Assembly: GCA_031278835.1 (NCBI GenBank)
Contig: JAITJP010000028.1
Location: forward strand, 1-53,606
Reading direction: 5' to 3'
DNA: 53,606 nt
DNA from: Deltaproteobacteria bacterium
Lineage (GTDB): Bacteria > Desulfobacterota > Desulfarculia > Adiutricales > Adiutricaceae
Shown here: in pieces, positions 922 through 52,968 of the stretch
Layout of the letters: every line of letters begins with the position of its first letter
Position numbering within the stretch: position 1 is the stretch's first letter
Translations under genes and position numbers: made by a program
Notes under the pieces: model-generated
Told to the model about the DNA's origin: nothing
Databases searched by the model: none
What the model saw: only the letters and a program-made list of their open reading frames with translations

Positions 922-2608
922 GATAAATGCCAGAAAGGGTCATAGAATCCTTTAAAGTCTGAAGAACCTAGTCGATTTAAAAAATGTGAGGTTTTGTTAA
1001 GTAAAATTAGGTTTAGTTAAATTTTTTAAAGTAAAGGTAGCTTTGGTTTTATTTATTAAACATTAACCCGGCACTATATAAATTATAAATGATACGATAA
1101 AATAGGCTTAATAACGAATTTTAGACAGACGTAATGATGAGATAGCAATTAGTTATAAAAAAAATAACGTTAAACGTATTTAAGCGATATTTAGAGTGAT
1201 AGATAGAAAATTTAAAAAATAACCACAAATTGGAATTGATAAATAGCTTATTTATATAGTGTTTGATATTTATAGACTATAAAATGGTTATTTTGGTACG
1301 CTAAAGTCGATAAGGTACAATCTAAGTCCTCAGCGATGAATTTTAGACTGGGGTGATATGGTACAAGGCATTCTTTTTAATTTAACAACATATTGATTAT
1401 GATGCTGACCTTCGCTAATTTATAACATGTATAATTAATGCCAAGGTACTATATTTCACTTTTGTTAAGCGTAAGATTAGGTAGATGTCCTCGCAAAGAA
1501 GCATTGGTTACATACATCTCCTAGGCTATCCCATTGGTTCTATGACCCTGGCTTAAGTCCTTTGGTCACTCTTAGGCCGCCAGGGTTTGGGGCCGTCAAT
1601 CCCGGGAAGCTACACCATTTGATAGTCTGAATAAACTTAAGACCTCTGTATCTTTGGTTTTAAGGCGCCTTTGGGTAAGGATGACCAGGCCAGGTAAAAG
1701 CTTACTCCGCTATATTTGCCTTTAAAACTAGTTTTTAAGAAAAGAATATAGATATCTTAAGTTTTTGTAAAGTCCCCTTTGGGTAATAAATCGCTTAGCG
1801 ATTTAAGTTTACCTAAATGTTTTTTTATATCCCACAAGGTTTTAAAAAAAGATTATAATTTTCTCAACTTGTCGTGACGACGACTTTTAGAATGACCGGT
1901 CGGCTTATTTGAACTTTGTTTATGATAGTTTTTATTAACCTTTAAAAGAGCGAATCGGTAAGTCCACTATTTTACTTGATTTAAACTCGAACTATTTTAA
2001 AAATTTAAGGAGAGTGAATATTTAATGGTAACTTACCCTGGGATCTTGGAATAAACCCTAGAGGGCCTTTCCCAGACCAAGTCAGAAGCCGGTAAACTTA
2101 TGACTTGAATTTTTATAATAAAAGGGTAAGATCAATTGCCAGCTCAGTGGGCCCGGTGAGCCCAGCCTAACGGCTGATAGCTGAGCTTAATAAATCGACT
2201 TTTCGGTCATGGGAAAGAGGCTCCCTTAATAGGCTTCTAGACTAACGCCCGTGCACGGCCGTTCGTTAATAAGCCTAGCCAGATAGCCCGTTATGACTAA
2301 TGATTCTGGAGGATTCAGAATGGCCAAAAGGCGAACTCTATGGTAATCTACCTCGCCGGAGCGATCGGCCGGCGATAAGATGACCAAAGCTGACCTGACT
2401 ATTTTGGGTCAGTTGATTTGAACGTTTGGAAATAAAAACCTTAGCGTCCGGCCTAAGGGGTCCTGGCTTACCCAAAGCCGCCTGACCCCAAAGAATTTAA
2501 GGCTTTTGCTTTCAAGCCCCAATGAAAAAAGGGCTTGGCCGAGCCGCTCAAAATAAAAAAGGCCTGGGTTTTTCTTTCTGAATTTGAAGGTTGCTTGGGA
2601 TATTTGCT

Positions 2609-3292
2609 ATGACCTCTAAACAAAAGGTGGATCCAAAATATAAAATTTTTGGAGACGTCGTAAGTTTACCTCTTTATGAAGATTCCTCCAAGACCAAGGA
2701 CCATATCATCTTGGAATCGACGATATTGTTTGCCAAAAAAGGCTTCGACGCCGTCTCGATTAGAGACATCGCCGCCGTCATAGGCATCAAGCCATCGAGT
2801 TTATATAATCATTTTGAGAGTAAGGAAGCTTTATTTGACGCCGTCATCAAGCACGCTGAGGATCTATACCTTTTATATTTTCAGCACCTTGATTCCATGA
2901 TCAAAGCTTCAGGCACGTTTTCGGAAATCCTGGATGTCATTTTTTTAGAGCCAATTAAAATGTCCAATACCTTTACGTGCTATGCCTTTTCTTTAGTTCA
3001 GACCGAGCAATTTCGTTACAACCGGGCCTCGATGATTTTTACCAATACCTTCTTGGAATATAGCATCAACTTCTTTAAGAAGCACTTTGACGATTGCGTA
3101 GCCAAGGGCTTATGTCAGCCTTTCGATTGCCGGACCGTCTCCATGGTCATCATGCATAGCGTCCTGATTGGCATTAACCTCCGGGTTCACGAATACCTGG
3201 AACAGCATCCGCCCTACTCCTTTGCTGAGATGTTTAACGACCTTAAGCATTTTATCATGCGAATCGCCTGTCCCGAGGCCTACGAGGACTAA
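2609..3292 (+). CDS. TetR/AcrR-family transcriptional regulator
   Basis: N-terminal HTH signature ILESTILFAKKGFDAVSIRDIAAVIGIKPSSLYNHFESKEALF. ATG at 2609 lies inside ORF 2591..3292. About 227 aa, a typical TetR size. Confidence 0.8.
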   Translation: MTSKQKVDPKYKIFGDVVSLPLYEDSSKTKDHIILESTILFAKKGFDAVSIRDIAAVIGIKPSSLYNHFESKEALFDAVIKHAEDLYLLYFQHLDSMIKASGTFSEILDVIFLEPIKMSNTFTCYAFSLVQTEQFRYNRASMIFTNTFLEYSINFFKKHFDDCVAKGLCQPFDCRTVSMVIMHSVLIGINLRVHEYLEQHPPYSFAEMFNDLKHFIMRIACPEAYED

Positions 3293-4009: not shown

Positions 4010-5836
4010 ATGTGCAATAAGCAAGTAGATCGGTTTTTTCAACTCTTTGAAGATGATGTCACCGATAAGGTTTCCATGGATATGCCCATGACCAAAGCCA
4101 AACTGCTCATGGAATCCATGATCATGTTTTCCGAGCGAGGCTACGATGGCATTTCCGTTAGGGATATTTCCGACGCGGTGGGTATCCAGACCTCGTCTTT
4201 GTACAATCACTTCAAGTGCAAGCAGGAACTCTTGGAGGTGGCCATCGAGCTGTCCTCAAACCTTTACTACCTCTACCTAAACTGCGTGATGGAAAAATAC
4301 AATAAGGCCGTCACCTTGATCGACATGCTCGACGCCGTGGTTCAGGATCCCAAGAAGGCCTTTAACGCCACCTCATGTTACGCGCTTTCTCTGGTTCACT
4401 GCGAAAAATATCGTAACCCCCGATCGGCCAAGGTCTACGCCAATATCTTCATCGATCATAGCGTCCAATTCTACAGGAATATTTTCCTGGATCTGGTGGC
4501 CAGAGGGGCTTGCTCCGATTTTGACACTAAAACGGCGGCCATTATTGTTAATAACGCCTTCCATACGGCCATTAGCCTATCCATGCAAGATTATCTTGGC
4601 TTTAGGCACGAACCCGATTTCTCGGAAATGGTCTACGGGATTAAGGAACTCATCTTAAAGCAAGTTTATCCAGGCGGAAAAATTAGCGACTTTGACGAAA
4701 AGGAAGCCCCGCGTCTGCCCCCTTTTCCCAAGGAGATGATGAATTTCCAAAAGACCGGTGAGGCCATGGATTCGGCTCAAGGCCAAGACCTTGAGAAGAT
4801 GATGTCTCACTTCTCGCCCGAGCTTGGCCAGGTTTTTTCCGACCATCTCGATAGCTACTTAAAGCTGATCAAAGCCGACTGTGGGGAGTTAACCAACTTT
4901 CAGATAGGAAACGAAAGCCAAACGGTCATTCAATTTTTAAAGGAAAATTATTTAGAATCCGTGGCTAGCCAAGCCACCAACTTAGAACAAGCTATGCTAA
5001 TCACGAAAGCCATGGAAGCCCACGCGGAGAACTGGACCAAGCTCAAAGAGAGCATCCAGAAAAAGATCAAAAACGCCGAGATCAAGATCCAAGACATCTT
5101 CGCCGTCTTCCTCACCATCGAAAAGGAGTATGAGCGGGTCTACAAGCGCCATTACGAATATAGCCTAACCAATAGCCGTCCGGCTGAGGTTAGCGCTAGG
5201 CTAGTCGAGAGTTTACAGGCCTCCATGAAAACCGTCTTTGGCCTTCTGGAAAAGGCCGACCCGGGCCGCCCGGCCGTCGGCGAGCAGGCTCTGGAGACGG
5301 TCAGCCTGGTCGCCTCCGAAAGGGACCCAGCCGAGCTTAAGAGCCGGCCAAGCCCTGGGGGCCCCTCGGATAAAGAGCTAGTCTATGGCGCCCAGATCTT
5401 GTCTTCAAAAAAAGTCGAGTTGGCCATCGACTCCTTACTCAATGACATGATGGTGAACCAAGCCATGACTCGAGGAAAAGGTGACAAAATGTTAGAGAAC
5501 TTAACCCCTGAAAAAGACGGGAAAGGACTCGAAGTGAGGGAGCCTGGTTCGGGCTTTTTCAGCCAAAGGAAATCTTATGGAAACGGTTCGCTGAAACGGA
5601 CCGATCACAAAAACTTGGACGTTTTCGTCAAGGTTAACGGCAAAATCGTGAAGCGCCCCGAACCGAGACTTGAGCCAATCCAGCCCATGCCCACCATGCC
5701 CAAGGACGAGCGCCGGGAACCCGACAGCCAAGCCACTAGGTCCCTGGCCCCGAAGGCCGAACTCGACGACCTGCCCTTAAAGTCCGAGATCTGGAGCGCC
5801 GCCGAGGTCATGTGTAAAAATAAAACCAGGAGCTAA
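4010..5836 (+). CDS. TetR-family regulator paralog with a ~380-aa C-terminal extension of unknown function
   Basis: Residues about 25-225 parallel the 2609..3292 protein (LMESMIMFSERGYDGISVRDISDAVGIQTSSLYNHFKCKQELL). The rest is helical/charged and then Pro/Gly/Lys-rich, with no motif I recognise. GGAG lies 7 nt upstream of the ATG. Confidence 0.7.
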   Translation: MCNKQVDRFFQLFEDDVTDKVSMDMPMTKAKLLMESMIMFSERGYDGISVRDISDAVGIQTSSLYNHFKCKQELLEVAIELSSNLYYLYLNCVMEKYNKAVTLIDMLDAVVQDPKKAFNATSCYALSLVHCEKYRNPRSAKVYANIFIDHSVQFYRNIFLDLVARGACSDFDTKTAAIIVNNAFHTAISLSMQDYLGFRHEPDFSEMVYGIKELILKQVYPGGKISDFDEKEAPRLPPFPKEMMNFQKTGEAMDSAQGQDLEKMMSHFSPELGQVFSDHLDSYLKLIKADCGELTNFQIGNESQTVIQFLKENYLESVASQATNLEQAMLITKAMEAHAENWTKLKESIQKKIKNAEIKIQDIFAVFLTIEKEYERVYKRHYEYSLTNSRPAEVSARLVESLQASMKTVFGLLEKADPGRPAVGEQALETVSLVASERDPAELKSRPSPGGPSDKELVYGAQILSSKKVELAIDSLLNDMMVNQAMTRGKGDKMLENLTPEKDGKGLEVREPGSGFFSQRKSYGNGSLKRTDHKNLDVFVKVNGKIVKRPEPRLEPIQPMPTMPKDERREPDSQATRSLAPKAELDDLPLKSEIWSAAEVMCKNKTRS

Positions 5837-11484: not shown

Positions 11485-14157
11485 TTAGGTGCCGTCCGAG
11501 GAGAGGCTGGCGCTTGGGGTGCCAAAGGAGCCCAGGCCTAAAAGGTTAAAGACCAAGCCGACCCTTTGGTCATCGTAGGTGCTGGAAAAGAAAACCGAGA
11601 CGGCGTAACACTGGGCCTCGTAGTTTAAGGTAAAGTAGGTCTCCAGTTCTTTTTTGCGCTGAAAATCAAAGCGGGTGGAAAAACTGGAACTCCAGCCGCC
11701 GGTAAAATTTATAATGGCGTCGCCGCGGATCTGGCTGACGTTGTTTTCTTGGGCCGGGCCGCTACTGATGGTCGAATTGTCGTAATCGTAGATCAGGCCC
11801 AGAGAATCGCCCCGACGGTTAAAAAGGCTCATGGAAATTTCATGGCGGGTGAATTTTCCGGCCCGGCCGTCAAATTGCGAAAGAAGCCTAGTCGAAACGC
11901 CGTTGGCCAGATTGCTCTCAATTTCCAACTCAAAGGGCCCGACCCCGCTATCGTAGTAACCGGTGGTGTAGTAACGAGCCCAGGTGTTTTCGGCCCATTC
12001 GATGTTATTGGCAAACTCGTAACTGCCATAAATACCCAGCTTAAAAATCTGCTTGTAGTCATTGTAAAGAAGATTTTCCGAGGCGTCCAGGACCGGGGTT
12101 TTGGTGGTAATTGAGTTTCTAAGGCCGTAGCGGAAGGTTTGCCGGGAAAGGCGCCGGTCGAGCATGTCAAAAAAAGGCGCCTCGGATTGGGAGGGGCTTT
12201 CGACCAGTTCAAAGGCCAAGATGGGGCTGACCTCGTGCTGGGTTTGGCTGGCCTGGCCGGGGCCAAAATCATAAACCCGGCTTAGGGAGGTGGTTAACTC
12301 GATATCGACATTGCCGGAAAAAATGTGTTGATTGGCCTCGTGTTTGATTCGTCCGGTCCTGGTGGGCCGATAGCCGGTGGGAAAATAAGCCGTGTACCTA
12401 AGGCCGCCGTCAAGCTTAAGGTTCATAAAGGTGCCCATGTCTTGGTTCCAAAAAAGCGAGGGGGCCATGGTCAAGCGATGACCGATCTCGGTGATGTAGC
12501 TGTGCCGGTCGGTTTTCCTACTAAAATAATCGTATTGAAGCTCCAAACTGAACCTGGGTCCGGCCAAGCTCCCGGGCATGGAAAAGCCGAGATTGATGGG
12601 CCGACTGACAATGTTGTATTGCAACTTGGGCAGATTTTGGAGGGTATCGACGTTATTTTTTAAATACAAATTATTGCTGTAATTTAAGGAGCCCTTGAAA
12701 TAGGTGTCGTCGGCGGTCCTTTGGACGTACAAGGTCGATTGGCGAATGGGATCGAGTTCTTCGTTAATGGTTCTACCAAAATAGCGTGAAAACAAGGCTT
12801 GGGAAACGTTAAAACCATCCAGGTCACTTCTAAAAGTGTACAAATACATGGGGTCAGAAACCAGGTCAAGGTCTAGATTGATGTTCCAGCCAGAGTAGTT
12901 CCAAGCGTTTTGGGTTCTTAGCCAATACAAGTTTCTGACGTTTTTCTCTTGACGGCCCTCGGAGCGATACGAGTAAAGGTTATTTTGCTTATCTTTGAGA
13001 GCCGTGACCAGCCAGATGCCTTGACCGGCGCTTAGATTGTAGCGGCCCTCCAAGGTCACGGCCAGGCCCCTATGGGAGCGCCAAACCGGGGTAATGGTCA
13101 GATCGTAATCTTCGGCCAGTTCCCAGAAAAAGGGCGTGGCCAGAAAAAAGCCATCCCTTTTGGAGTATTCGACCGTGGGCATCAAAAAGCCGGTCTGTCT
13201 CTCGCCTTTAATGGGCACGGCGAAGTAGGGGGCGTAAAATAAGTTAAACCACTTGTTTTCCAAGGTCACCCCGGTGGCCGTGGCTAGGCCCCCGCGGTTA
13301 ATCATCAAATCTTTGGCCAGTAAGCGCCAGGAGGGATCCGGCCCATCGCAGGTGGTAAAAACGGCTTCGTTAACGTAAAAAGCTTCCTCGCCTTGTCTTT
13401 CAATGACGTCGCCTTGAACGTAATAATGCCCCTGGGGAAAAAAAGCCTTGCCGTCATAGAGCTTGGCCAGTTTAAGATCCATATTGACGGCCGCCCGAGC
13501 CGCCGTGGCCGAAAAATCCGGGGTGCGCATCTTGACCGCCCCGCTGACCTCGACTGTCTGGGTTGGCTCGTGCCAAAGGGCCCGGTTGGCTGAAATTTGT
13601 TCGGCCTCCCGGGTAATTAAGACCTGGCCGATGAAATCAAGCCGCCCGGACAGCTCATCATAGCGCATCTCGTCGGCCTCGATGACAACCTCGGGGCCGT
13701 TTTGAGAAACCACCATCCTGACCCGGTTACTGGTCTGGGGTAGCTCCTGGGCCTCGACTTGATAGAGCCGGGCTTCTTCTTCCCGGCTTAGGGGCTGGTA
13801 AGCCCTGGGAAAGGCCTCCTCGGGAAAGGGCCCCGGGTACTCCCGATCCTCGGGCCAGGGGGCAAAGAGATCGCCCTCGGTCCTCGGGTCTTCCAAAACA
13901 AAGCCGGTTTCCGGGGCCCGCAAGGCCTCGGTTAAATTGGTGCCCAAGCCGCTTCGGTTTAAGGCCTGGGCCCAGCCCGGCTCGGCAAAGAGCTCCAGGG
14001 CCAAAAACAAAATGGCCGCCAAAATCACCCCAAATTTACCCCAAAATTTTCCCCAAAATTTACCGCTAGCCAGGCCCAAGCCAAAGCCCAGCCTCCAGGG
14101 CCCCAAAAGGCCCCCAGGGCTGGTCTGACTTAAGCTATGTCTAGTATCTTGGTTCAA
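11485..14157 (-). CDS. lptD: LPS-assembly outer-membrane protein LptD (OstA family)
   Basis: 890 aa with a signal-like N-terminus. The OstA-like N-domain is followed by TTCDGPDPSWRL...NKWFNLFYAPYFAVPIKGERQTGFLMP and a long beta-barrel-type C-terminus. Confidence 0.85.
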   Translation of the reverse strand: MNQDTRHSLSQTSPGGLLGPWRLGFGLGLASGKFWGKFWGKFGVILAAILFLALELFAEPGWAQALNRSGLGTNLTEALRAPETGFVLEDPRTEGDLFAPWPEDREYPGPFPEEAFPRAYQPLSREEEARLYQVEAQELPQTSNRVRMVVSQNGPEVVIEADEMRYDELSGRLDFIGQVLITREAEQISANRALWHEPTQTVEVSGAVKMRTPDFSATAARAAVNMDLKLAKLYDGKAFFPQGHYYVQGDVIERQGEEAFYVNEAVFTTCDGPDPSWRLLAKDLMINRGGLATATGVTLENKWFNLFYAPYFAVPIKGERQTGFLMPTVEYSKRDGFFLATPFFWELAEDYDLTITPVWRSHRGLAVTLEGRYNLSAGQGIWLVTALKDKQNNLYSYRSEGRQEKNVRNLYWLRTQNAWNYSGWNINLDLDLVSDPMYLYTFRSDLDGFNVSQALFSRYFGRTINEELDPIRQSTLYVQRTADDTYFKGSLNYSNNLYLKNNVDTLQNLPKLQYNIVSRPINLGFSMPGSLAGPRFSLELQYDYFSRKTDRHSYITEIGHRLTMAPSLFWNQDMGTFMNLKLDGGLRYTAYFPTGYRPTRTGRIKHEANQHIFSGNVDIELTTSLSRVYDFGPGQASQTQHEVSPILAFELVESPSQSEAPFFDMLDRRLSRQTFRYGLRNSITTKTPVLDASENLLYNDYKQIFKLGIYGSYEFANNIEWAENTWARYYTTGYYDSGVGPFELEIESNLANGVSTRLLSQFDGRAGKFTRHEISMSLFNRRGDSLGLIYDYDNSTISSGPAQENNVSQIRGDAIINFTGGWSSSFSTRFDFQRKKELETYFTLNYEAQCYAVSVFFSSTYDDQRVGLVFNLLGLGSFGTPSASLSSDGT

Positions 14158-15542
14158 TTGGACTCCACGGCCGGGGCCCCGGTCAGGTAGGCCCTGGTTT
14201 CCCCCACGGTAAAAAGCGAGCCGCTGACCACGACCAAATCTTCTGGGCTGGCCGCCTGGGCGGCCGCGGCCAGGGCCTGGGGGATGGTCGGATGGAGACT
14301 ATAGGGGCATTTGGGCTGACCCAAGGCCTTGGTTAATCTCGACAAAAGTAATTCTGGGTCAGCGGCCCTATGGTAAGCCGGCCTGGTTAAATACAAACAA
14401 TCGGCCAGTTCCAAGACCGGAGCCAAGACCCCGGCGATGTCCTTGTCGGCCATGACCCCGACCACCAGGTGAAGTTTTTTTCTGGGGGCCGTTTTTAACA
14501 AACTGGTTAAGGCCAAGGCCCCGGCCGGATTGTGGGCCCCGTCCAAAATCAAGGGGGCGGCTGAATTCTTCTCCGCGGGCCAAGTCCCGGCGGCGAAGAC
14601 CTCGGCCCGGCCCGGCCACTTAACCGAGCTTAGGCCCCTAGAAATTATTTCCGGCTTAAGCTCAAAGCCCAAGTCCTCCAAACCGGCCAAGGTCTCGGCC
14701 ATGGCCAGGGCCATGGCCCCGTTATCGGCCTGGTAGGGTCCGGTCAAGGCCAAGGGAAGGCCGCTAAGCTGCCACTTTGGCCCAATATAATCTATAGTCT
14801 GGGCGGCCCCTCCCAGTCCAAAAGCCGCCCCGGCTTGCTCGGGGGCGATTTTGACCTGATAATCTCGGCCTAAAATCATAACCGAGGGGCAGTTCATTTC
14901 TTGGCTTTTTTCCAAGATAAGCTTAGAGACTTTTTCCGTATAGCGGCCCCCCACGAAAGGCACCGCTCTCTTAATCACCCCAGCCTTTTCGAAGGTAATC
15001 TCCTCAATGGTCGTGCCCAGATGGTCGGTATGCTCCAAACTTACGTTGGTTATGGCCGACAAAAGGGGCCTAATGACGTTGGTGGAATCTAGCCGGCCGC
15101 CCAAGCCCGTTTCGATCACGGCCAAATCCACGCCCTTTTGCTTAAAATACAAAAAGGCCATGGCCGTGACAAACTCAAAAAAAGTCGGGGGACTGGCCGG
15201 ATCGGTAGCCGGCCAAACTTGATTGACCAGCTCAATCACCTCGCCTTGGCCAATAAACTGCCCGTTTATTTGGATCCTCTCCCGAAAGGTGATTAAATGA
15301 GGAGAAGTGTAAAGGCCGGTCTTTAAGCCCTGCCGCCTTAAGCCCTCGGCCAGCATGGCCGCCGTGGAGCCTTTGCCATTGGTTCCGGCCAGGTGGACAA
15401 ACTTGAGTCCCTCATGGGGCCGCCCCAAGTTCTCCAAGATTTGATTCATGGAATCAAGGCCAAACTTCATGCCAAACTTTTGCAAGTCAAAAAGCTTGGC
15501 GATATTTTTTCCATAATGGTCTGAGACGACGGTGTCTTCCAT
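14154..15542 (-). CDS. folC: Dihydrofolate synthase / folylpolyglutamate synthase
   Basis: Mur-ligase P-loop HLAGTNGKGST. FolC-type N-terminus (FGMKFGLDSMNQILENLGRP). 4-nt overlap with lptD. Confidence 0.9.
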   Translation of the reverse strand: MEDTVVSDHYGKNIAKLFDLQKFGMKFGLDSMNQILENLGRPHEGLKFVHLAGTNGKGSTAAMLAEGLRRQGLKTGLYTSPHLITFRERIQINGQFIGQGEVIELVNQVWPATDPASPPTFFEFVTAMAFLYFKQKGVDLAVIETGLGGRLDSTNVIRPLLSAITNVSLEHTDHLGTTIEEITFEKAGVIKRAVPFVGGRYTEKVSKLILEKSQEMNCPSVMILGRDYQVKIAPEQAGAAFGLGGAAQTIDYIGPKWQLSGLPLALTGPYQADNGAMALAMAETLAGLEDLGFELKPEIISRGLSSVKWPGRAEVFAAGTWPAEKNSAAPLILDGAHNPAGALALTSLLKTAPRKKLHLVVGVMADKDIAGVLAPVLELADCLYLTRPAYHRAADPELLLSRLTKALGQPKCPYSLHPTIPQALAAAAQAASPEDLVVVSGSLFTVGETRAYLTGAPAVESN

Positions 15543-16066
15543 AAAAAAACTTTATTTCCGCGAAAAAAGGGCGCCCCTGGGCCCAGAGATCTGGCCCCTG
15601 GCCCAGAGACCTGGCCCAAAAATTTAGTCAAAGCTGTTAACAGTTTATGGACTAAAATATATTATAATATAGCCCTAGCCATTACAACAAAAAGTTTTTC
15701 CAATCAATGATTCATCACTTAGTGGTCTTGTTTAAACTCTTTTATCAATAACGTAACTACTTAATATCGCTAAAACATGATAAATTTCATTGATAGGGCT
15801 AAGCAAAGTTAGCCCTGGTCCAACCGTCCTGATCATGGGGCCCATGGCCCCGTTCAAGTCAGAAAAAAAACTTTTTTTAAACCAGGGGGGGAGCGGCGCT
15901 GACAACAAATTGTAGCCACAAAGACCAAAAAAGTAAACGAATTTTGGGCTTACTTTAAGCTGGCCCGGCCCTAAGCGCTATTTGTGGGCCAAAATTTCCA
16001 GACCAGCCCCGCTTATGGTGGTCAGCCCAAAGCCCAGCTGGGGCCCCAGCTGAGTTTTTTTTGGCC

Positions 16067-18491: not shown

Positions 18492-20102
18492 TTAAAAGTC
18501 AAGTTTCGGCCCCTTAGTTTCGGCCCCTTGGGTCAAAAACTCGGTCACCGCCGCCACCAAAGAATCAATGGTGGCGCTTTTGGCCTCGGCCACCACCTTA
18601 AAGCCCAGCTCCTGGGCGGCTTTGGTGGTGATCGGCCCAATGGAGGCCACCTTGACCAGGGGGCGATTTTCCGGGCCAATGTAATTAGACAGCCCCTGGG
18701 CCGTGCTGGCGCTGGTCAGGGTGGCTAAGTCTAGGGGCCGTTGGTAAAAGGAAGTTTTTTGGTCTCCGGTTAACTGTTTATTATATCCAATAAAACTTAA
18801 ATTTTCAAATCCTGACCAATCGGCTATAAGGGTCTCATATAAGGGGATTAGATCTATTTCAAAGCCTAAATTACTTAGCCCCAAAACCAAGGCCTCTCGG
18901 GCCTCCTTGGCCCGGGGTAACAGAACCGGGCCCAGGGGCAGATCTTCAAAAAGCTTGACCAAGCCCTCGGCCACATAGCGGCAGGGCATCAGATCGGCCA
19001 CCAAACCAAAAGTGCCCAAGGCCTCGGCCGTGCCCGGCCCAATGGCGGCAATGGACAGGGCGTGAAGGGCCCGGCTATCGAGCTTGGCTTCAAAAAGGGC
19101 CTTCATGAAAAGGTTGACTCCGTTTGGCGAAGTAAAGATTAAATAGCGGTACCTGGCTAGATTATTTAGAGCCTGGTCCAGCTCCAAATTAGGCCAAAGG
19201 GCCTTAATCTCAATTGAGGGTCTTTCCACTACCTCGGCCCCCAGATCCCTTAAAGCCGCCGACAATCGGCCGGCCTGCTGCCTAGTCCTGGTGACCAGTA
19301 TTCTTTTGCCAAAAAGGGCCCTTTTTTCAAACCAGTTCAGCTTATCCCTTAAACTGACCACCTGGCCCACCACCAAAAGGGCCGGACTATTAAGGCCCAA
19401 TCTCTTGACTTCATCAAAAAGCCCCTCTAATCTGCCCACGGCCACCTTTTGCCGGGCCGTGGCCCCCCATTCGATTAAGGCGGCCGGGGTCTGGGGATCC
19501 TGGCCAGCTCCGATTAAATTTTCTAAAATCATACTTAAATTTTCCAGGCCCATGACCACGGCCAAGGTGCCCAGCTTAACCAGGGCCTCAAAATCCAGGG
19601 CCGAATAGCCCTTGCCGGCCTTTTCATGCCCAGTCAAAATGCCAATCTGTGAGCCCATATCCCGATGGGTTAAGGGTATGCCGGCCGCCCCAGCGGCGGC
19701 GATGACCGAGCTCACCCCGGGCACCACCTCAAAGGGTACCCCGGCCTCAAAAAGTTCCAAGGCCTCCTCGGCCCCTCGGCCAAAGACATAGGGATCCCCG
19801 CCCTTAAGTCTGACCACCGTCTGGCCCTTCCAGGCCTCCTCTACCAATAGCCTATTGATTTCCCCTTGCTTTAAGGTGTGATGGCGGCCGCTCTTCCCGG
19901 CGTAAATTTTCCTGGCCCCTTTGGGGGCTAAATGTAAAAGCTCCGGCGAGGCCAAATAGTCATAAACCACCACCTGGGCCCGGCCCAAAACTTCGGCTCC
20001 CCTTAAGGTTAAAAGGCCCGGATCGCCCGGCCCGGCCCCAACCAAATAGACCTTGGCCGGCAAAGCCCCAGGGCCCTTTCTTTCATTTCTTTCAATACTC
20101 AA
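18492..20102 (-). CDS. cobA-hemD: Fused uroporphyrinogen-III C-methyltransferase / uroporphyrinogen-III synthase
   Basis: N-terminal SUMT motif VYLVGAGPGDPGLLTLRG. A C-terminal HemD-like half of about 250 aa (KRILVTRTRQQAGRLSAALRDLGAEV). Confidence 0.9.
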   Translation of the reverse strand: MSIERNERKGPGALPAKVYLVGAGPGDPGLLTLRGAEVLGRAQVVVYDYLASPELLHLAPKGARKIYAGKSGRHHTLKQGEINRLLVEEAWKGQTVVRLKGGDPYVFGRGAEEALELFEAGVPFEVVPGVSSVIAAAGAAGIPLTHRDMGSQIGILTGHEKAGKGYSALDFEALVKLGTLAVVMGLENLSMILENLIGAGQDPQTPAALIEWGATARQKVAVGRLEGLFDEVKRLGLNSPALLVVGQVVSLRDKLNWFEKRALFGKRILVTRTRQQAGRLSAALRDLGAEVVERPSIEIKALWPNLELDQALNNLARYRYLIFTSPNGVNLFMKALFEAKLDSRALHALSIAAIGPGTAEALGTFGLVADLMPCRYVAEGLVKLFEDLPLGPVLLPRAKEAREALVLGLSNLGFEIDLIPLYETLIADWSGFENLSFIGYNKQLTGDQKTSFYQRPLDLATLTSASTAQGLSNYIGPENRPLVKVASIGPITTKAAQELGFKVVAEAKSATIDSLVAAVTEFLTQGAETKGPKLDF

Positions 20103-22992: not shown

Positions 22993-23249
22993 ATTGATGC
23001 CCCGTAAAAAAAATATAAAAAAGGCCTCTGGAGGAAACTAACCATTAAATGTGTATAAATTCAAAATAGGCTTTTTTAAGAGTTTTGTCAAGGTATTTCT
23101 AGCCGCCTGAGCCAAAGTCAAAGCCCGAAAAGCCTAAATTTAGCCAAAAGTCAAGGCCGGCCCTTTGAAAAATTATTCCAAGAAAGCTGACAAAAAAATT
23201 TGCCCAGAGCCCCCAAAGCCCCTTGGTAAAACTTTATAAAGCCGCATTT

Positions 23250-23270
23250 TTGTCAAAAATTTTTTGACAA
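23250..23270. promoter_or_regulatory. Palindrome TTGTCAAAAA-T-TTTTTGACAA in the regulator / T6SS intergenic region
   Basis: Perfect 10-bp arms read directly. It lies 258 nt upstream of the - strand HTH gene start. Confidence 0.35.
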
Positions 23271-23399
23271 TAAGTAATATTTTGTGATTTTTCCGGGAGG
23301 GGATCCATACTAATCTAGCTAATTCAAGAAATGGGGTGATATTTTTTAACTAGCCGATCTTAGTTGTCAATATATAAGATTATGGTGTTTAAAAAATAC

Positions 23400-23428
23400 T
23401 TGACTTCTTGAAAAAGTTTTAATATAAA
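23400..23428 (+). promoter_or_regulatory. Sigma70-like promoter TTGACT-N17-TATAAA
   Basis: -35 at 23400-23405 and -10 at 23423-23428 with exact 17-nt spacing. It lies about 630 nt upstream of the tssA ATG. Confidence 0.4.
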
Positions 23429-23434
23429 GTATTT

Positions 23435-23602
23435 CATGATTTTGGAATAAAGTATAAAGGCAGTGGATTCATCACGGTTAAATTGTCTCGGTCAGAAGGC
23501 CAGGTAACCGCTTGAATCCGGCCCCTACCCAGTCACCTGGGAGCCGATCTGGGCGGTTGGGCCCGGTTCTGGTCAATTAAATGGTCTGGTCCAGATTTTT
23601 TA
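23435..23602 (+). ncRNA. Candidate structured leader or sRNA downstream of the 23400 promoter
   Basis: Nested stems ggattca (23465-71)/tgaatcc (23513-19) and cggtta (23475-80)/taaccg (23505-10). Hairpin cccag-tcac-ctggg (about 23528-41). A weak stem plus T6 run at 23596-23601. No ORF. Confidence 0.2.
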
Positions 23603-24057
23603 TAACTTAAAAACCTAAAAACTCAATAAAATTTAAAGCCGGCCAATAAAGGCCCAAATGGCCGCCATTTGGGGGCCAAATGGCCAAGGGAGGGCCTATG
23701 AGCTAAGCCATTTTGTTTTTTTTAAAGGGCCCGGGAAAGCCTCGCCAAGTAGGGCCTTATTTTTCTCATTGTCCGCTTTAAACTTGCCCACGCTCAAAGC
23801 TAACTTGCTTTAGCCCCTTGACTTCCTCTCGAAAAAACAAGGTTTTGCTTTTCAGTGATTTAAACTTAATAAGTTCTTAATAACTGGGTAGTAAAGTCGA
23901 AACAACACCAAGAACCAACCGTTTTCTCTCCAGGAACCTACCGCCGCGGAAAGCGATTAATTCACTTTTTACAGATACAAGTTTTTATGTAATTTTGTAA
24001 ATATCCATATAAATATTTGTATTTGTAGATTTTGTGAGTTATGGCTTAGGAATTAAC

Positions 24058-25659
24058 ATGCTTGAGGAACAAACCTGTGACTATGATTTTATTTATAAGT
24101 GGGCAGAACCAATCGGAGATGGTCGCGGGCCGGCTTGCGGGGTAGAAGCCACCTTTAGCCCGGAATTTGAGTTTATCAAAGACGAGGTTGATAAAAGCTC
24201 CTCTTTGCATGAAAACAATGGGACCAATTGGCAGCTGGTTTTAGAGCGCTCCAACGCTTTTTTAACCGAGCAAAGTAAGGACCTCTGGGTTCTTTGCTAT
24301 GGGCTTAGGGCTGTTTATGAAAAGCATGGTTTAAGCTCCTTGGTGGCGGCTTTGGAGGTTTTAAAGGCGGTTTTGGAAAATTTTTGGGACCAGCTTCATC
24401 CCAGCCTAAAAAGGCCCCAGAGGCGGGCCGCCCCGCTGGCCTGGCTGGCCGGAAAACTGGAAATGATCGTCGCCGGTACGGCCTTTCCCAAAGATGAGGA
24501 CCAGATCGCCCAAAAGCTTAAAAAGGCCTTAGAGGCCTTGCAAAAAATTCTGGACCAAAAACTTAATGAGATCAGCCCGTCCTTTGCCGGGGTGCTTAAG
24601 GGGCTTAAAAATCTAAAGCCTCCACAAGAGTCGGTTCCTCCAGCCCCGGACTTTGAAGCGGCTTTGGCCACGGCCATTTTGACCAGCCCAAGCCCAGCAA
24701 ATAGGGCCATACCGGCCCAGCCCTTTGAGCTTCAAGTCAGTTCCGATGGTCAAATAGCCGCCAATCAACTGCCCCAAGTTTTTAGGGCCATTAAGGAACA
24801 AGCCCAGCTCCTGGCCGCCCATTTAGCTGGGCGAAACATTCTGGATTGGCGGGTCTATTTACTGCACAGAACTTCATTGTGGAGCACCATTAGCCAGTTG
24901 CCCCAGGCCGACCCTGATTTAATCACCCAGCTCCGGCCCGTGCCCAGTGACCTGGTGGCCAGCTACACGGCGGCCGTGGAGGCCGGGCGATTGGCCGAGA
25001 TTTTACCGCGACTGGAACGATCGGCCTCAAAAATGCCTTTCTGGTTTGACGGCCATTACCTGGTCGATAAATGCCTGGAAGGCCTCAAGGCCCGGGAGGC
25101 CTTAAATATCCTGCGCCTGACCTTGGGCCTTTTTATAAGGGAGTTTCCGGAGCTTATTGACTACAAATATTTTGACAAAAGCCCCTTCGCTTCGCCCAAG
25201 ACCCTTCATTGGCTGGCCTCCTTGGATACCATGGATGACGGCACCCTGGGCCGCTTGGCCGGGGCCGTCAAAGTCAGCTCCCCCCCAAAGGAAGGCTCGG
25301 AAGACCAGGAGCTTATCCTCAAACAAGCTCTGGATTTGTGGCGCGACGGGGATTTTGAGGCCGGACTTAAGCGGGTCGGGCCACAACTAGCCACCAAAAG
25401 CAGAGCCTCGATTAAGCAGGGCTTACTGGTGGCAAGGTACTGCCTGGGGGCCGGTCGCCCCGAGGCCGCCGGTAACCTTTTGGGTGATTTGTTTGATAAC
25501 CTAGAGTCCTGGGGCCTTTTGGAGTGGGAACCAGAGCTAACTGCCGATATCTTGACCTTAATCGTCTACGTTTATACCTTTCTCAAGCAGGAAGTCCCGG
25601 TTATGGTTAGGCAAAAGCTTTATTGGTTTAACCTGGAAACGGCTTTACAGGCTTTTTAG
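24058..25659 (+). CDS. tssA: T6SS protein TssA (ImpA N-terminal domain)
   Basis: The ImpA_N-like region EPIGDGRGPACGVEATFSPEFEFIKDEV...WQLVLERSNAFLTEQSKDLWV. ATG at 24058 with AGGA 7 nt upstream (GTG 24034 is an alternative). Confidence 0.85.
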   Translation: MLEEQTCDYDFIYKWAEPIGDGRGPACGVEATFSPEFEFIKDEVDKSSSLHENNGTNWQLVLERSNAFLTEQSKDLWVLCYGLRAVYEKHGLSSLVAALEVLKAVLENFWDQLHPSLKRPQRRAAPLAWLAGKLEMIVAGTAFPKDEDQIAQKLKKALEALQKILDQKLNEISPSFAGVLKGLKNLKPPQESVPPAPDFEAALATAILTSPSPANRAIPAQPFELQVSSDGQIAANQLPQVFRAIKEQAQLLAAHLAGRNILDWRVYLLHRTSLWSTISQLPQADPDLITQLRPVPSDLVASYTAAVEAGRLAEILPRLERSASKMPFWFDGHYLVDKCLEGLKAREALNILRLTLGLFIREFPELIDYKYFDKSPFASPKTLHWLASLDTMDDGTLGRLAGAVKVSSPPKEGSEDQELILKQALDLWRDGDFEAGLKRVGPQLATKSRASIKQGLLVARYCLGAGRPEAAGNLLGDLFDNLESWGLLEWEPELTADILTLIVYVYTFLKQEVPVMVRQKLYWFNLETALQAF

Positions 25660-25809
25660 AAAAAAAATCAAAATATCAATTATTCAAAAAATTAAACAAT
25701 CAATCGACTTTTAAAATTATGTCTTAATCAATCATAAAACTCCGTAAAATCATATAAAAACTCAAAAATTTAAATAAGCTCATAAGTTTTTGCTTTTTTT
25801 GGCTCATTA

Positions 25810-26061
25810 GTCATCCAACTCTAGCTATTTTTTAAAATTTATCTCTAGGCCTCAAGGTCAGTCATCTAACTCTAGCCATCTTTTAAAATTTATCTCTAAG
25901 AATCAAGGTTAGTCATCTAACTCTAGCCATTTTTTAAAATTTATCTCTAAGACTCAAGGTTAGTCATCTAACTATAGCCATTTTTTAAAATTTATCTCTA
26001 AGCCTCAAGGTTAGTCATCTAACTCTAGCCATCTTTTAAAATTTATCTCTAAGCCTCAAGG
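25810..26061. repeat. Five tandem copies of a 51-bp unit ending in the tssB ribosome-binding site
   Basis: Units lie at 25810-25860, 25861-25911, 25912-25962, 25963-26013 and 26014-26061. Consensus is gtcatctaactctagccattttttaaaatttatctctaagcctcaaggtta. The last unit runs into agggagg, and the ATG is at 26075. Confidence 0.95.
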
Positions 26062-26074
26062 GAGGAAAAAATTC

Positions 26075-26593
26075 ATGGCCAAGGAATCTTCCATCGCGCC
26101 CAAAGAGCGCATTAACGTCACCTTTAAGCCGGCTACCGGGGGCGCCCAAGAGGAAATCGAACTGCCCTTAAAGGTCATGGTCCTGGGTGACTTTCTGCGC
26201 GGCCACGACCCCAGAAGGCTAATTGACCGCAAGCCCATCAATATCAACAAGAACAATTTCGAGGACGTGGTGGCCAAGCAAAACTTGAAGCTGACCATCA
26301 ACGTGCCCAATCGTTTGAGCGATGAGGCTGGCAGCAATGACTTGCCGGTCAGTCTGTCTTTCAATAACCTTAGGGATTTTAGCCCCGAGGGCCTGGCCCG
26401 TCAGGTGCCTGAGTTAAATAAGCTCCTGGAGCTTAGGGAGGCCCTGGTTTCGCTCAAAGGCCCCTTGGGTAACATGCCGGCCTTCCGTAAGGCCATCGAA
26501 GAGAGCCTGAGCGATCCGGCTCAGCGCGACAAGGTCATTAAGGAATTGGCTTTGACCAATGAGCCCAAAGACGGAAACGGCCAAGATTCATAA
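26075..26593 (+). CDS. tssB: T6SS contractile sheath small subunit
   Basis: The canonical VipA/TssB N-terminus KERINVTFKPATGGAQEEIELPLKVMVLGDF. 172 aa. Confidence 0.95.
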   Translation: MAKESSIAPKERINVTFKPATGGAQEEIELPLKVMVLGDFLRGHDPRRLIDRKPININKNNFEDVVAKQNLKLTINVPNRLSDEAGSNDLPVSLSFNNLRDFSPEGLARQVPELNKLLELREALVSLKGPLGNMPAFRKAIEESLSDPAQRDKVIKELALTNEPKDGNGQDS

Positions 26594-26683: not shown

Positions 26684-28162
26684 ATGTCCCAACGGCAACA
26701 GCAAGCGGCGCTCGGGGAGTCCCTCCCGGCCCCAAATTTGTTAGAGGCCATCATCAAGGAAACCAACCTGACTCCCAATGACGAGGGCTATGAAGCGGCC
26801 CGTTTGGGCATCAGTTCTTTCATTTCCGAGATGCTCAAACCGGATTATCAGCACGAAAAGGTCAAAAAAACCACCGTAGACAGGATGATCGCTGAAATCG
26901 ATTACCGTATGGGCCGGCAAATTGACGAGATCCTGCACCATCAAGATTTTCAGGCCCTGGAATCGGCCTGGTTAGGCTTAAAACTCTTAATCGATCGATC
27001 TGATTTTCGGGAAAACATCGAAGTTGAGATCATCAATCTGACCAAAGACGAGCTTTTGGATGATTTTTTGGACGCCTCGGAAATGGCCCAATCGAGTCTG
27101 TATAAGCTCATCTATACGGCCGAGTACGGTCAGTTTGGCGGCAAACCGGTCGGGGCCATGATCGGTAACTATTTCTTTGGGCCCACGGCCATGGATATCA
27201 GGCTACTACAGTCTCTGGCTAGCCTAGCGGCCATCGCCCACGCCCCTTTCATCGCCGCCGCCGAACCCTCCTTTTTTGGCCTAAACAGCTTTGAGCGCTT
27301 GCCGGCCCTAAAGGATCTCCAGGACATTTTTAGCGGCCCGCGCTACGCCAAATGGCAAAGCTTTAGGGAGTCCGAGGACTCCAGATACGTGGGCTTGACC
27401 CTGCCCAGGTTTTTACTTAGGCAGCCCTACGATCCCGAGGATAACCCGGTCAAGGCCTTTGTTTACAAAGAAAACGTGGACAACAGTCACGACAGTTTTT
27501 TGTGGGGCAATACCGCCTTTGCCTTGGCCTCGCGCCTAACCGACAGTTTCGCTAAATACCGCTGGTGCCCAAACATCATTGGCCCCAAGTCCGGCGGGGC
27601 GGTCGAAAATCTGCCCGTGCACCTTTACGAGAGCATGGGCGATATTGAGATGAAGATCCCCACCGAGGTCTTGATTTCCGATCGAAGGGAATACGAACTG
27701 GCCGAGCAGGGTTTTATCGCCCTAACCATGCGCAAAGGCAGCGATAACGCCGCTTTTTTCTCAGCCAGTTCTTGCCAAAAAGCCAAGTTTTTTGGCTCTT
27801 CGCCCGAAGGCAAAGAGGCTGAACTAAATTATCGCCTGTCCACCCAGCTGCCTTACATGTTTATCATTTCCCGCTTGGCCCATTACATCAAGGTCTTGCA
27901 ACGGGAAAACATCGGCTCCTGGAAAGAGCGCACTGACTTGGAAAGGGAGCTTAATCTCTGGATCCGCCAATACGTGGCCGATCAGGAAAACCCCAGCTCC
28001 GATACCCGTAGCCGGCGGCCCCTAAGGAGTTCCCAGATAACCGTTGATGAGGTTGAGGGCGATCCGGGTTGGTACCGGGTGACCATTTCCGTGCGGCCCC
28101 ACTTCAAATACATGGGCGCCTACTTCACCCTGTCTCTGGTCGGTAAACTCGACAAGGAGTAA
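26684..28162 (+). CDS. tssC: T6SS contractile sheath large subunit
   Basis: 492 aa with a VipB/TssC-type sequence (LPRFLLRQPY, NIIGPKSGG, RPHFKYMGAYFTLSLVGKLD). Confidence 0.95.
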   Translation: MSQRQQQAALGESLPAPNLLEAIIKETNLTPNDEGYEAARLGISSFISEMLKPDYQHEKVKKTTVDRMIAEIDYRMGRQIDEILHHQDFQALESAWLGLKLLIDRSDFRENIEVEIINLTKDELLDDFLDASEMAQSSLYKLIYTAEYGQFGGKPVGAMIGNYFFGPTAMDIRLLQSLASLAAIAHAPFIAAAEPSFFGLNSFERLPALKDLQDIFSGPRYAKWQSFRESEDSRYVGLTLPRFLLRQPYDPEDNPVKAFVYKENVDNSHDSFLWGNTAFALASRLTDSFAKYRWCPNIIGPKSGGAVENLPVHLYESMGDIEMKIPTEVLISDRREYELAEQGFIALTMRKGSDNAAFFSASSCQKAKFFGSSPEGKEAELNYRLSTQLPYMFIISRLAHYIKVLQRENIGSWKERTDLERELNLWIRQYVADQENPSSDTRSRRPLRSSQITVDEVEGDPGWYRVTISVRPHFKYMGAYFTLSLVGKLDKE

Positions 28163-44711: not shown

Positions 44712-45500
44712 ATGGCCCTACCCAAAGCGCTTTTATGTCTGCTCGGCTCAAGTGAGGCTTACTCAGGTGAGGCCGAAGAGCTCTCCCTTCGGGCGGTTGG
44801 CTTTGCCACGGCCACCTTGCGCTGGGCTGATTTTCGGCCTGAAAGTAACGATTGGTTGGGCTTATCAACCCTCTTGGAAGATCCCAGCCTCACGGCTTGG
44901 ATCCTGGCCGGGCCCTATGAAGAATTTAGCCCGCAAATCATAAGCCAGATCAGCCTGTTAAGCTTAGCCCTGGACCGAAAACCCTTACCGATTACGGCCA
45001 TAATAACCAAACTGGCCGATAAATCTTACCTGGAGTTGCCGCCCATCCTGGCCCACCTTAAAATTTTTGACCCCCTGGACCCTTACCCCGCTAAGCTGAT
45101 GGCCTATCGTTTTAAGCCGCCGGAAGACCTGGCCCGGCCTTTTTACTTAAAAACTTACGCCTCGCCCCTAATCGGCCTGTGGTTGGAAGTGGGCCCAAAC
45201 GAAAGCGAAAAATGGTCTGGCTTTATGTTGGCCGTTACCAAGACCCTAATTGAGGTTTTGGGGGTGGGCCCCCGGGGCCAGATCCCCAAAAAAAGTATTG
45301 TCAATTACCCCATGCACGGTCTGGAAGGCCATTTGGGCGATTTGAAATTTCAGGCCAGCGCCGCCAAAAACACCCTGGACGCCGAAACCAGCGCCTATAT
45401 CCACCTGGCCGGGCCCCCCAATCACCTAATCGTCGGCCCTTACCCCGAGGAAAAGCCCTCCGCTGAGGGCTCCTGGGCCCAAGTCTTGGCCCTAGCTTAA
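44712..45500 (+). CDS. Hypothetical protein (262 aa) embedded in the T6SS cluster
   Basis: A clean ORF on the same strand and with similar codon style to its neighbours, preceded by a 264-bp AT-rich spacer. The N-terminus MALPKALLCLLGSSEA is only weakly signal-like. I recognise no family motif. Confidence 0.6.
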   Translation: MALPKALLCLLGSSEAYSGEAEELSLRAVGFATATLRWADFRPESNDWLGLSTLLEDPSLTAWILAGPYEEFSPQIISQISLLSLALDRKPLPITAIITKLADKSYLELPPILAHLKIFDPLDPYPAKLMAYRFKPPEDLARPFYLKTYASPLIGLWLEVGPNESEKWSGFMLAVTKTLIEVLGVGPRGQIPKKSIVNYPMHGLEGHLGDLKFQASAAKNTLDAETSAYIHLAGPPNHLIVGPYPEEKPSAEGSWAQVLALA

Positions 45501-46213: not shown

Positions 46214-46548
46214 GGGCCCTGGGCCTAATCGGCCCCCTGGCCCTGGCAGGGCCAATTGGCTGCCGAGGCTGATCGGCCACGAGCGAATGAAAATATCCGT
46301 TGGTGGCCGAGCTAGGCCTGAGCCCCAAGAAAAAAAACCCTTTAAGCCGCCTTTAGCTCTTGGGGCCCGATGAGTTTGCCCAAGCCCAGGCCCGGCCAAA
46401 AGCCCTTATCAGGAAAAGGCTTACCTCTCGGCTTTTTCGCGGCTGGCCCCAAGCCTGGGCTAAAAAAAACAAAACAAAAATTATGAGTTTTTACTCGTAA
46501 AATAAAAAAGTTAATAAGTTTTTATTTGTGGAAAAACTGAAATAATTT

Positions 46549-46672
46549 AAGCTTAAGCCTAAATCTTTGACCGTGGTTATGGTTAATTTGGAAACGATTA
46601 AGCTTAAGCCTTAGTCGTTGACCGTGGTTATGGTTAATTGGGAAACGATTAAACTTAAGCCTAAGTCTTTGG
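46549..46672. repeat. About 2.4 tandem copies of a 51-bp unit upstream of vgrG
   Basis: Units lie at 46549-46599, 46600-46650 and 46651-about 46672. Consensus is aagcttaagcctaaatctttgaccgtggttatggttaatttggaaacgatt. The array ends about 60 nt before the vgrG ATG. Confidence 0.9.
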
Positions 46673-49317: not shown

Positions 49318-49356
49318 GGCTTTTGCCTAAAGCCGAAGCCAACCAAAAAAAGGTGG

Positions 49357-49467
49357 CCAAAAAGGTGGCTTGACCAGCCAAGCCAATCGACCAGTCTCAA
49401 AGTTAAGGCCGCCAAAAAGGTGGCTTGGCCGGGCCAAGTCAATCGACCAGTTTCAAAGTCAAGGCCG
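49357..49467. repeat. Two tandem copies of a 55-56-bp unit between vgrG and the downstream gene
   Basis: Units lie at 49357-49411 and 49412-49467 (ccaaaaaggtggcttgaccagccaagccaatcgaccagtctcaaagttaaggccg). A partial ccaaaaaaaggtgg lies just upstream at about 49343. Confidence 0.9.
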
Positions 49468-49519
49468 CTAAAAAAAATCCTCGCCAAAACCCACTAATAG
49501 AGCGAAAACAGAGAACATC

Positions 49520-52500: not shown

Positions 52501-52777
52501 CAGTGGGCCGCAAGAAGTTATCAACGTCATGGGTAGGCGCTCTTTACTGGGCGATTTTGATGAGCAAACGGCTATTTTGTACTTTATATCGGTTCATTTT
52601 AATGAAAGCCACCCCATCGGCCAGCACTATGATCTTAAATCGCCTTGGTGTTACCCGGTGAATGTCACTTATGACCGAAAGATCATTACCAGAAAATTTG
52701 GCCGCGATGGTGAGTTGCCGCTATACTCGGAATTAAAGAAAATTCCCGAATATAACCCGACCGAAGGCAAAGAGTAA
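49520..52777 (+). CDS. Large VgrG-adjacent protein with a calcineurin-like metallophosphoesterase motif set; candidate T6SS effector
   Basis: DxH in VVSDLHLS (nt 50639-50647). GDxxD in VAGDAFD (50813-50827). GNHE in YLTGNHEAY (51182-51193). GHxH in TISGHSHRGG (51773-51784). No signal peptide. Low-complexity P/S/G linkers. Same strand as vgrG and 202 nt downstream of it. Confidence 0.7.
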   Translation: MGNEPIQDSNFYINLWAIKGVILFPALGTPAIIEPNGQLTVYLAMQKRAFDRHTKNNGASSPGAPVPIELASYFYFQTMITPWTDRGRDYVNYKKYSDELATEAAASKRFYTSFEKAHQMFKQKKFGGFYVGEFQKDQEFLAQYYPLEGDLKPQGPFGVIHKEAVNMYLDGQLTETEPKKAAEPPSAKDQEEPGVPPENLGYRYVFQFTVKDSPKLAHQGLYELMYLYINYAHYFKAIINRQKNDHWVLKKFGDIHDHYLTNPGDDLVSKVIINDLEVKTKQIKSESKIVNTFEFERWPYMEPEKMKLVKIYDSDPTLVMTQGQKNLAGKPDQDRGGGEKSLHYLSDKNGWFVLSKHPVYITEKNYLDLGVVSDLHLSSRQASYKLVAPQVIHGVMEQDSPYLGALCNQALETAQSLMKSIGQESDLLIVAGDAFDVLRNLDPKVVESKTLALRQAESQRAAANPDQVPSPEPPGPGDSGPSGSGSAQTPKAGQDPDKPPREIKLSTAELWEHLDFKKYEGQGPNYPFYIDALMFMALIFDYYTISKKPVFYLTGNHEAYEVPYGISPRPMFMNNNIIVFRPNAGIPSDQNLTFYEAALLFGKKYSFIGRIANFKKENLAWAYRWITPWKDCLVNSGKNQNMLLMGWDDDENYLLSALAGGDSLPRAGSAITDHQLSLLKRMTGQADKFNLMASHFTYANFDLESPLHRQDRLRSGSWILPLRKSDTGSFEENRTAVYSELTGGRVKLTISGHSHRGGAYTCSGAGQIDGLRLNGSAGAAGAGRSEGSEGSGDSGGLGGAEGDQGVSLTPSGRGLKSVNPQEQFPGSVACLVSGSAGLYSYQNLTNGELSDVDKPQGMIIKCGLSGELERVHYVRNENCPKPRLAVRCDYLWYENGIEMFYHGDEVKGDIVAEEKKKDLEPQYMFYLNPEWLRYLNNGKSEENQALPIAYFHLYCINRKNYETFSTKALALEIESDEPTYPLGKHRKVPAYKLTSGPQEVINVMGRRSLLGDFDEQTAILYFISVHFNESHPIGQHYDLKSPWCYPVNVTYDRKIITRKFGRDGELPLYSELKKIPEYNPTEGKE

Positions 52778-52968
52778 AAAAAATATTGATTGAGTTGATA
52801 AGATTTTTTCAAGGCGCTTGGTGGAGTTTTTGGAATCAAGGCGCCTGGTGAAGTTTCTTAGAATTTACTGGGCTTTTAGGCGGCTAAGCTGATTGATTCG
52901 ATTCATTTAATTGATTCGGTAAAAATTTGGTAAACCAAAAAACAGTCCCAATCACCGGAGGACGCTTC

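Follow-up and report, generated by a model that had tools for sequence, protein, structure and literature searches.

The spacer between the T6SS genes tssA and tssB holds five head-to-tail copies of a 51-bp unit, and we think it probable that this array is a locus-specific minisatellite, in which a native tssB leader of about 51 bp was duplicated in tandem, amplified and partly homogenised. The DNA analysed, hereafter the window, spans one entire contig (53,606 bp) from a metagenome bin. We infer that the array would have no dedicated regulatory role and that its copy number still varies today. If tssBC expression is affected at all, this would be secondary, through fivefold reiteration of any weak cis-signal that the leader may hold. 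Another possible side effect would be the longer untranslated gap between tssA and tssB, grown from about 50 nt to 415 nt, eight times the ancestral length.

The array and its setting

Tandem Repeats Finder (TRF) places the array at 25807-26061 (period 51, 5.0 copies, 93% matches, 0% indels, score 440), making it the strongest repeat in the window, and a second repeat search returned the identical 51-bp register. An earlier sequence-only reading of this DNA had described five tandem units of about 51 bp with few substitutions each, non-coding and abutting the tssB Shine-Dalgarno (SD) sequence, in a 415-bp tssA-tssB spacer of a T6SS operon. The two repeat searches, the spacer coordinates (25660-26074) and Pfam matches of the flanking genes bear out this description. 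Two details differ: the array starts at 25807 and not at 25810, and in the TRF register it comprises exactly 5.0 units, none of them truncated at the SD as had been proposed. The features of the region are as follows (L-numbers denote T6SS loci of other genomes).

24034-25659, plus strand: tssA, 541 aa, ImpA_N and T6SS_VasJ (Pfam); stop codon TAG at 25657-25659
25660-25806, plus strand: A-rich, non-repeated 5' part of the spacer (147 bp); its last 20 nt, TTTGCTTTTTTTGGCTCA, are common to L164
25807-25857, plus strand: unit 1, 3 differences from consensus
25858-25908, plus strand: unit 2, 4 differences from consensus
25909-25959, plus strand: unit 3, 1 difference from consensus
25960-26010, plus strand: unit 4, 1 difference from consensus
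26011-26061, plus strand: unit 5, 1 difference from consensus; copy in native place beside the SD, aligning with the SD-proximal segment of L002, L164 and L001
26060-26065, plus strand: tssB SD, GGGAGG, 9 nt 5' of the ATG; its first two G are the end of unit 5
26075-26593, plus strand: tssB, 172 aa, T6SS_VipA (TssB/VipA) (Pfam)
26684-28162: TssC (Pfam)

The unit consensus is TTAGTCATCTAACTCTAGCCATTTTTTAAAATTTATCTCTAAGCCTCAAGG. Units 1-5 depart from it by 3, 4, 1, 1 and 1 substitutions, so that divergence is greatest in the 5' units of the array. A 21-nt core of the unit has five matches in the window against 0.00 expected in shuffles. The last GG of the array (26060-26061) forms the first two bases of the SD, and 13 bp separate the array end from the tssB ATG (26075). 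These are direct copies of high identity, arranged head to tail, with a unit length (51 bp x 5.0) inside the ~10-100 bp of minisatellites (VNTRs). The units are contiguous, their start-to-start spacing equalling the unit length, and thus lack the unique spacers that split CRISPR repeats.

The TssA C-terminus stops at the same residue in the window, L001, L002 and L164, and the TssB N-terminus, MAKESSIAPKERINVTF, is common to relatives. Downstream of tssC, Pfam matches identify tssE, F, G, clpV, fha, tssJ, K, L, M, pppA, ppkA, hcp and vgrG.

The GAGG of the tssB SD can base-pair with the CCTC at 26054-26057, and a small hairpin appears in the DNA fold. The element CCTC-N4-GAGG is kept at this site in the window (26054-26065), L001 (3244-3256) and L164 (2264-2276), and could form a 4-bp hairpin sequestering the tssB SD. 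The array contributes further CCTC copies upstream of the SD (three extra CCUC anti-SD-like motifs), whose influence on expression, if any, would again be secondary.

Several other features of the window were recorded. A 1085-aa ORF (49520-52777) lies directly after vgrG. Its only domain match, to calcineurin-like phosphoesterases, is weak (E 1.3e-5, which falls short of the Pfam cut-off), and it contains 9-bp repeats (51846-51916); we note it as a candidate T6SS effector. A 262-aa ORF without a Pfam match sits between ppkA and hcp (44712-45500). The sole match of a 608-aa protein (4010-5836) is an N-terminal TetR helix-turn-helix, an unusual length for a TetR regulator, and a second TetR gene lies at 2591-3292. 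The divergent region upstream of tssA (22993-24033) is 1 kb of AT-rich DNA (39% G+C) with strong promoter-like sites on the minus strand only. A fused uroporphyrinogen-III methyltransferase/HemD synthase gene (18492-20102) adjoins hemC, an arrangement typical of sulfate-reducer-type tetrapyrrole pathways that agrees with the taxonomic placement.

Repeats of this kind invite the question of whether the array is real. A short-read metagenome assembler may have looped through a shorter repeat, so that the array or its copy number would be unreal. The window is the whole 53.6-kb contig of a metagenome bin, the relatives are k119 MEGAHIT-style contigs, and tandem repeats are hard to assemble. The units nevertheless carry unit-specific substitutions, and adjacent diagnostic sites lie less than one 119-mer apart, which fixes the path. 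Arrays of the same kind also occur in independent assemblies and samples, and collapse to too few copies would be the likelier error. Together these points make an artefact very improbable. In short-read bins, the copy numbers of such arrays are best regarded as uncertain.

Origin of the unit and history of the spacer

A close relative without an array offers a view of the native spacer. In L002, 57 bp separate the tssA stop from the tssB ATG, and 45 nt of these precede the SD. When units 1, 3 and 5 were globally aligned with this 45-nt segment, 3, 0 and 9 of 5000 shuffles, respectively, scored at least as high. Two colinear blocks carry the similarity, CAACTCTAGCTATTT in the unit against CAAATCTAGCTATTT in L002, and TTTATCTCTAAGCCTCAAGGGAGG against TTTTTCTTTAATACTCAACGGAGG. 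At L164, the last ~75 nt before the SD align with unit 1 together with the 20 nt that precede it in the window (TTTGCTTTTTTTGGCT), a score reached by 9 of 5000 shuffles. Because the unit aligns with both the L002 spacer and the SD-proximal segment of L164, these comparisons indicate that it is the native SD-proximal tssB leader amplified in place, and not inserted or mobile sequence. Derivation from local sequence, as opposed to a dispersed element, is again what is seen in minisatellites. An nhmmer search with a profile of the units found no further copy in the window or in L001-L005.

The 5' part of the spacer was compared with the unit in the same manner. Local alignment of 25700-25760 with the unit gave a score matched by 21 of 2000 shuffles, which marks a marginal relic at ~25708-25760; the other segments of this 147-bp part had no significant match to the unit in the shuffle test. 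The 5' part (25660-25806) may, from this alignment, comprise decayed older units. Separately, an origin of the pre-array sequence as a duplicated tssA 3' end was considered and rejected, 996 of 2000 shuffles being as good.

The probable course of events would begin with tandem duplication of the ~51 bp that natively lay between the tssA stop region and the tssB ribosome-binding site. Further rounds would have amplified the duplicated leader to five copies, with partial homogenisation by conversion. Replication slippage or unequal exchange between sister copies would be the likely mechanism. The array would have been tolerated, with the SD, the start codon and all frames left undisturbed.

The same spacer was examined in related genomes. 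The nearest relatives are termite-gut 'Deltaproteobacteria bacterium' bins (Pcl387_bin34, bin146 and bin95; L002 is bin146) together with JGI contigs. Among the relatives, 67 have tssA immediately 5' of tssB; their spacers have a median of 44 bp (quartiles 28-84), and of those 67 loci only L001 has an array. The spacers that bear most directly on the window are these.

Window: spacer 415 bp, array 51 bp x 5
L001: spacer 493 bp, array 31 bp x 8 at L001 2845-3123
L164: spacer 428 bp, array 42 bp x 4.7 at L164 1967-2163
L002, L165 and L166: spacers 49-57 bp, no array

The units of the window, L001 and L164 arrays are mutually unrelated in sequence; the 31-bp unit of L001 showed no significant homology with either its proximal leader or the 51-bp unit. 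The three array-bearing genomes are mutual nearest relatives, with 77-85% identity over the C-terminal 200 aa of TssA (others ~50%) and 83-86% tssB DNA identity among themselves (76-80% to others), and yet they are different species. Since the array-bearing genomes are each other's nearest relatives but distinct species, a single origin of the expanded spacer in their common ancestor is probable, judging from these identities, and arrays have since been born and lost inside it.

The idea of a copy-number-variable element, raised in the sequence-only reading, fits the comparative picture, which consists of different species only: three genomes have arrays in this spacer, each a different one, and the other three have none. 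In the comparison across related genomes that the reading had called for, arrays are replaced outright between species. In the genome contigs searched, the exact 51-bp repeat pattern has no match elsewhere, and the exact TssB protein occurs on the window contig and on no other contig searched. The closest metagenome TssB is 73% identical, and the scan returned distant relatives only.

Minisatellite density in the window and its lineage

The tssA-tssB array is not the only minisatellite in the window. Arrays were counted with TRF (period >=20, score >=70) in the 53.6 kb of the window and in 1.01 Mb of T6SS loci from other genomes. The window holds 7 arrays in 53.6 kb, compared with 8 in 1.01 Mb elsewhere, a density about 16-fold higher. 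Besides the tssA-tssB array, these are:

3-114: 40 bp x 2.8, 34 bp upstream of the ATG at 149; clipped by the contig end
992-1060: 30 bp x 2.3, intergenic
15573-15617: 20 bp x 2.2, 30 bp upstream of the start of the minus-strand gene 14154-15542
46547-46671: 51 bp x 2.5 with an unrelated unit, 60 bp upstream of vgrG
49356-49474: 56 bp x 2.1, between vgrG and the 1085-aa ORF
52809-52864: 27 bp x 2.0, intergenic

Intergenic DNA is 16.8% of the window and contains all seven (P ~4e-6), which make up 8.6% of it; 5 of the 14 window spacers of at least 150 bp carry one. Three of the seven lie outside the T6SS cluster. Five end 13-60 bp upstream of a start codon. Their units are mutually unrelated. 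When the seven window arrays were compared together with those of L001, L164 and L161, no shared motif or family survived multiple testing and no shared 6-mer stood out.

Relatives show the same tendency. The array of L161 (20783-20880, 36 bp x 2.7) occupies the spacer in which the window has its different, 56-bp array. Its first copy corresponds to the final 29 nt of vgrG and takes in the stop codon; this indicates a tandem duplication of local sequence across the gene end. Two further arrays in L161 (24 and 30 bp, G+C-rich) lie downstream, probably within a coding region.

These counts point to the tssA-tssB array being one of many unrelated minisatellites of the lineage, and not a T6SS-specific device. 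The rate at which the lineage makes arrays in non-coding DNA would be unusually high. Arrays in coding sequence would be removed by selection, so that arrays accumulate in spacers, which lengthen. Selection rather than mutation pressure could, on the other hand, explain why arrays are found in the same spacer of three relatives, at 415-493 bp.

We regard the density as the more solid point of the analysis: a gut lineage of free-living genome size and ~50% G+C carries about 16 times the usual intergenic minisatellite density. The arrays are visibly made from local sequence, such as gene ends and leaders, and are fully replaced between related species. The same spacer measures anywhere from ~50 to >400 bp, a plain illustration of how tandem duplication creates and renews bacterial intergenic DNA.

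Regulatory readings and known systems

The sequence-only reading noted a TAAAAT hexamer in each unit, which holds for all five, and offered a reiterated promoter or operator as possible roles. The first of these heads our ranking of rival explanations, followed by an RNA-level attenuator, an operator array and, last, the assembly artefact. In a promoter of the Mycobacterium tuberculosis style, the leader would hold a tssB promoter with TAAAAT as its -10, now stacked in five copies. Transcription of tssBC would then rise with copy number, uncoupled from tssA, and slippage would yield phase-variable expression. Sheath proteins are needed in large excess over TssA, which counts in favour of such an arrangement. 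So does the hexamer itself, which matches 5/6 of the -10 consensus including A2 and T6, and a start at the TAAAAT of unit 5 would give a sensible leader of ~26 nt. The array's distance of 13 bp from the ATG resembles that of mycobacterial 54-58-bp repeats located 12-29 bp upstream of theirs (PMC12817950), the start-codon-proximal position of five of the seven window arrays recalls M. tuberculosis in the same way, and MIRU units in the senX3-regX3 spacer show promoter activity (PMC4213456).

The array was examined for promoters with consensus scans. A strict sigma-70 scan found no plus-strand site in the spacer, while a relaxed scan found TAGTCA 19 bp upstream of TAAAAT in four of the five units (TAGTCA-19-TAAAAT, 9/12 matches). 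A spacing of 19 bp is non-optimal, and with a 4/6 -35 hexamer it predicts a weak promoter. The -10-like hexamer is absent at the homologous position in L002 and L164, and such hexamers are expected by chance in DNA of 27-31% G+C. Since the consensus scan finds no plus-strand promoter upstream of tssA either, it may be uninformative for this organism. A search for the sigma-54 element TGGCAC-N5-TTGCW with up to 2 mismatches gave no match in 25660-26074 and fewer matches across the window than expected by chance, and no sigma-54 activator (enhancer-binding protein) gene was present among the ORFs scanned in the window. Taken together, we judge a reiterated promoter unlikely.

A factor or nucleoid-associated protein bound to each AT-rich core would, as a reiterated operator or nucleation tract, silence or activate the sheath operon. 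The core, TTTTTTAAAATTTAT, is an imperfect palindrome and recurs regularly at close to five helical turns. In the sequence-only reading this phasing was taken to set the sites on one face of the DNA; the near-match to five turns holds, but a single face results only at a helical repeat of 10.2 bp. With 10.5 bp per turn, a 51-bp unit makes 4.86 turns, which offsets each unit by about -51 degrees and the array as a whole by about -206 degrees. The core is found nowhere else in the 53.6-kb contig, including upstream of tssA, hcp and vgrG, and the array units of L001 and L164 are unrelated to it. Neither a cognate binder gene nor the motif at co-regulated promoters was found, as an iteron or operator array would have; the flanking genes are structural T6SS genes. 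An 18-nt stretch is invariant among the units, a length within chance for 8 variable sites in 51 positions (P ~0.2). Selective conservation of the core was accordingly rejected: it is conserved no better than the rest of the unit (P ~0.2). An operator function is, in our estimation, improbable. With null strict sigma-70 and sigma-54 scans, a core confined to the array and chance-level conservation, the proposed promoter or operator is without sequence support.

An effect at the RNA level would place the array within the tssA-tssB mRNA, where this long, AU-rich and untranslated stretch would let Rho or RNase E load, or its CCUC copies would compete for the SD. More units would then lower tssBC expression or uncouple it. 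The interval between tssA and tssB has no intrinsic terminator and no convincing promoter, which suits this idea, as do the base composition of the array (C 54 vs G 26) and its lack of structure (z = +0.84). Ribosomes would not cover it, with stop codons in six of six frames of the unit (read by eye) and no ORF of at least 20 aa inside the array, and the CCTC-N4-GAGG element is kept at the SD. The C-rich bias is, however, not shared by the arrays of L001 (G over C) or L164 (C ~ G). No structure beats shuffles: the RNA fold of the array plus tssB start is no better than they are (the z-score given above), folding the units as DNA revealed no potential for hairpins (z = +0.1 to +0.9), and Rfam returned no match at E <=1. 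The idea is also a purely inferential one, and we give it little chance.

The most far-reaching interpretation is that the tssA-tssB junction is a selected contingency locus of a termite-gut clade, into which independent 51-, 31- and 42-bp minisatellites were repeatedly recruited because slippage-driven shifts in copy number set the tssBC sheath level relative to tssA. If true, it would work either by stacking weak promoters or by varying the untranslated gap, and heritable, reversible on, low or high states of T6SS firing would result in a crowded gut community. To our knowledge, no minisatellite-based rheostat has been described for a secretion machine. A copy-number-dependent effect on sheath expression is possible, and the array is of consequence to T6SS biology only if copy number alters that expression; the sequence gives no sign of it. 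We hold the contingency locus to be improbable, and return to the locus-specific minisatellite as the preferred account.

By its sequence features the array would belong to a known kind, the intergenic minisatellite (VNTR), with the proviso that strain-level copy-number variation is a feature of VNTR loci and the array here is known from one sequence. In Ehrlichia ruminantium, non-coding tandem repeats expand and contract, and intergenic regions are long (PMC10710844); Wolbachia has intergenic VNTRs such as the VNTR-105 and VNTR-141 loci (PMC3287509). Like these, the array consists of head-to-tail units of tens of bp that are non-coding, locus-specific and spacer-lengthening, within a lineage-wide enrichment. 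Its host differs, being an uncultured termite-gut former deltaproteobacterium of ~50% G+C with a full T6SS, and not a reduced Rickettsiales genome.

MIRUs carry short ORFs that overlap the stop and start codons of neighbouring genes. In senX3-regX3 they form tandem units of 53-77 bp, and the spacer can drive the downstream gene independently (PMC4213456). The array resembles them in its location between two co-oriented genes of one operon, and perhaps in promoter activity. MIRUs are, however, one family dispersed over many loci, whereas the present unit is unique to its locus (found at 25807-26061 only in the 53.6 kb), closed in all frames and without a small in-phase ORF.

The closest likeness at the level of the locus is with the promoter tandem repeats of M. 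tuberculosis at dop, lpdA-glpD2 and cysG-efpA. There, repeats of 54-58 bp derived from sequence upstream of the gene itself sit 12-29 bp before the start codon, in variable copy number (PMC12817950). Here a 51-bp unit ends 13 bp before the ATG, and the array shares their position directly upstream of a gene, in this case tssB. The M. tuberculosis unit is a known leaderless promoter whose added copies change phenotype, whereas the unit described here has weak candidate promoter content; and unlike the mycobacterial repeats, this array lies inside an operon, beside the SD.
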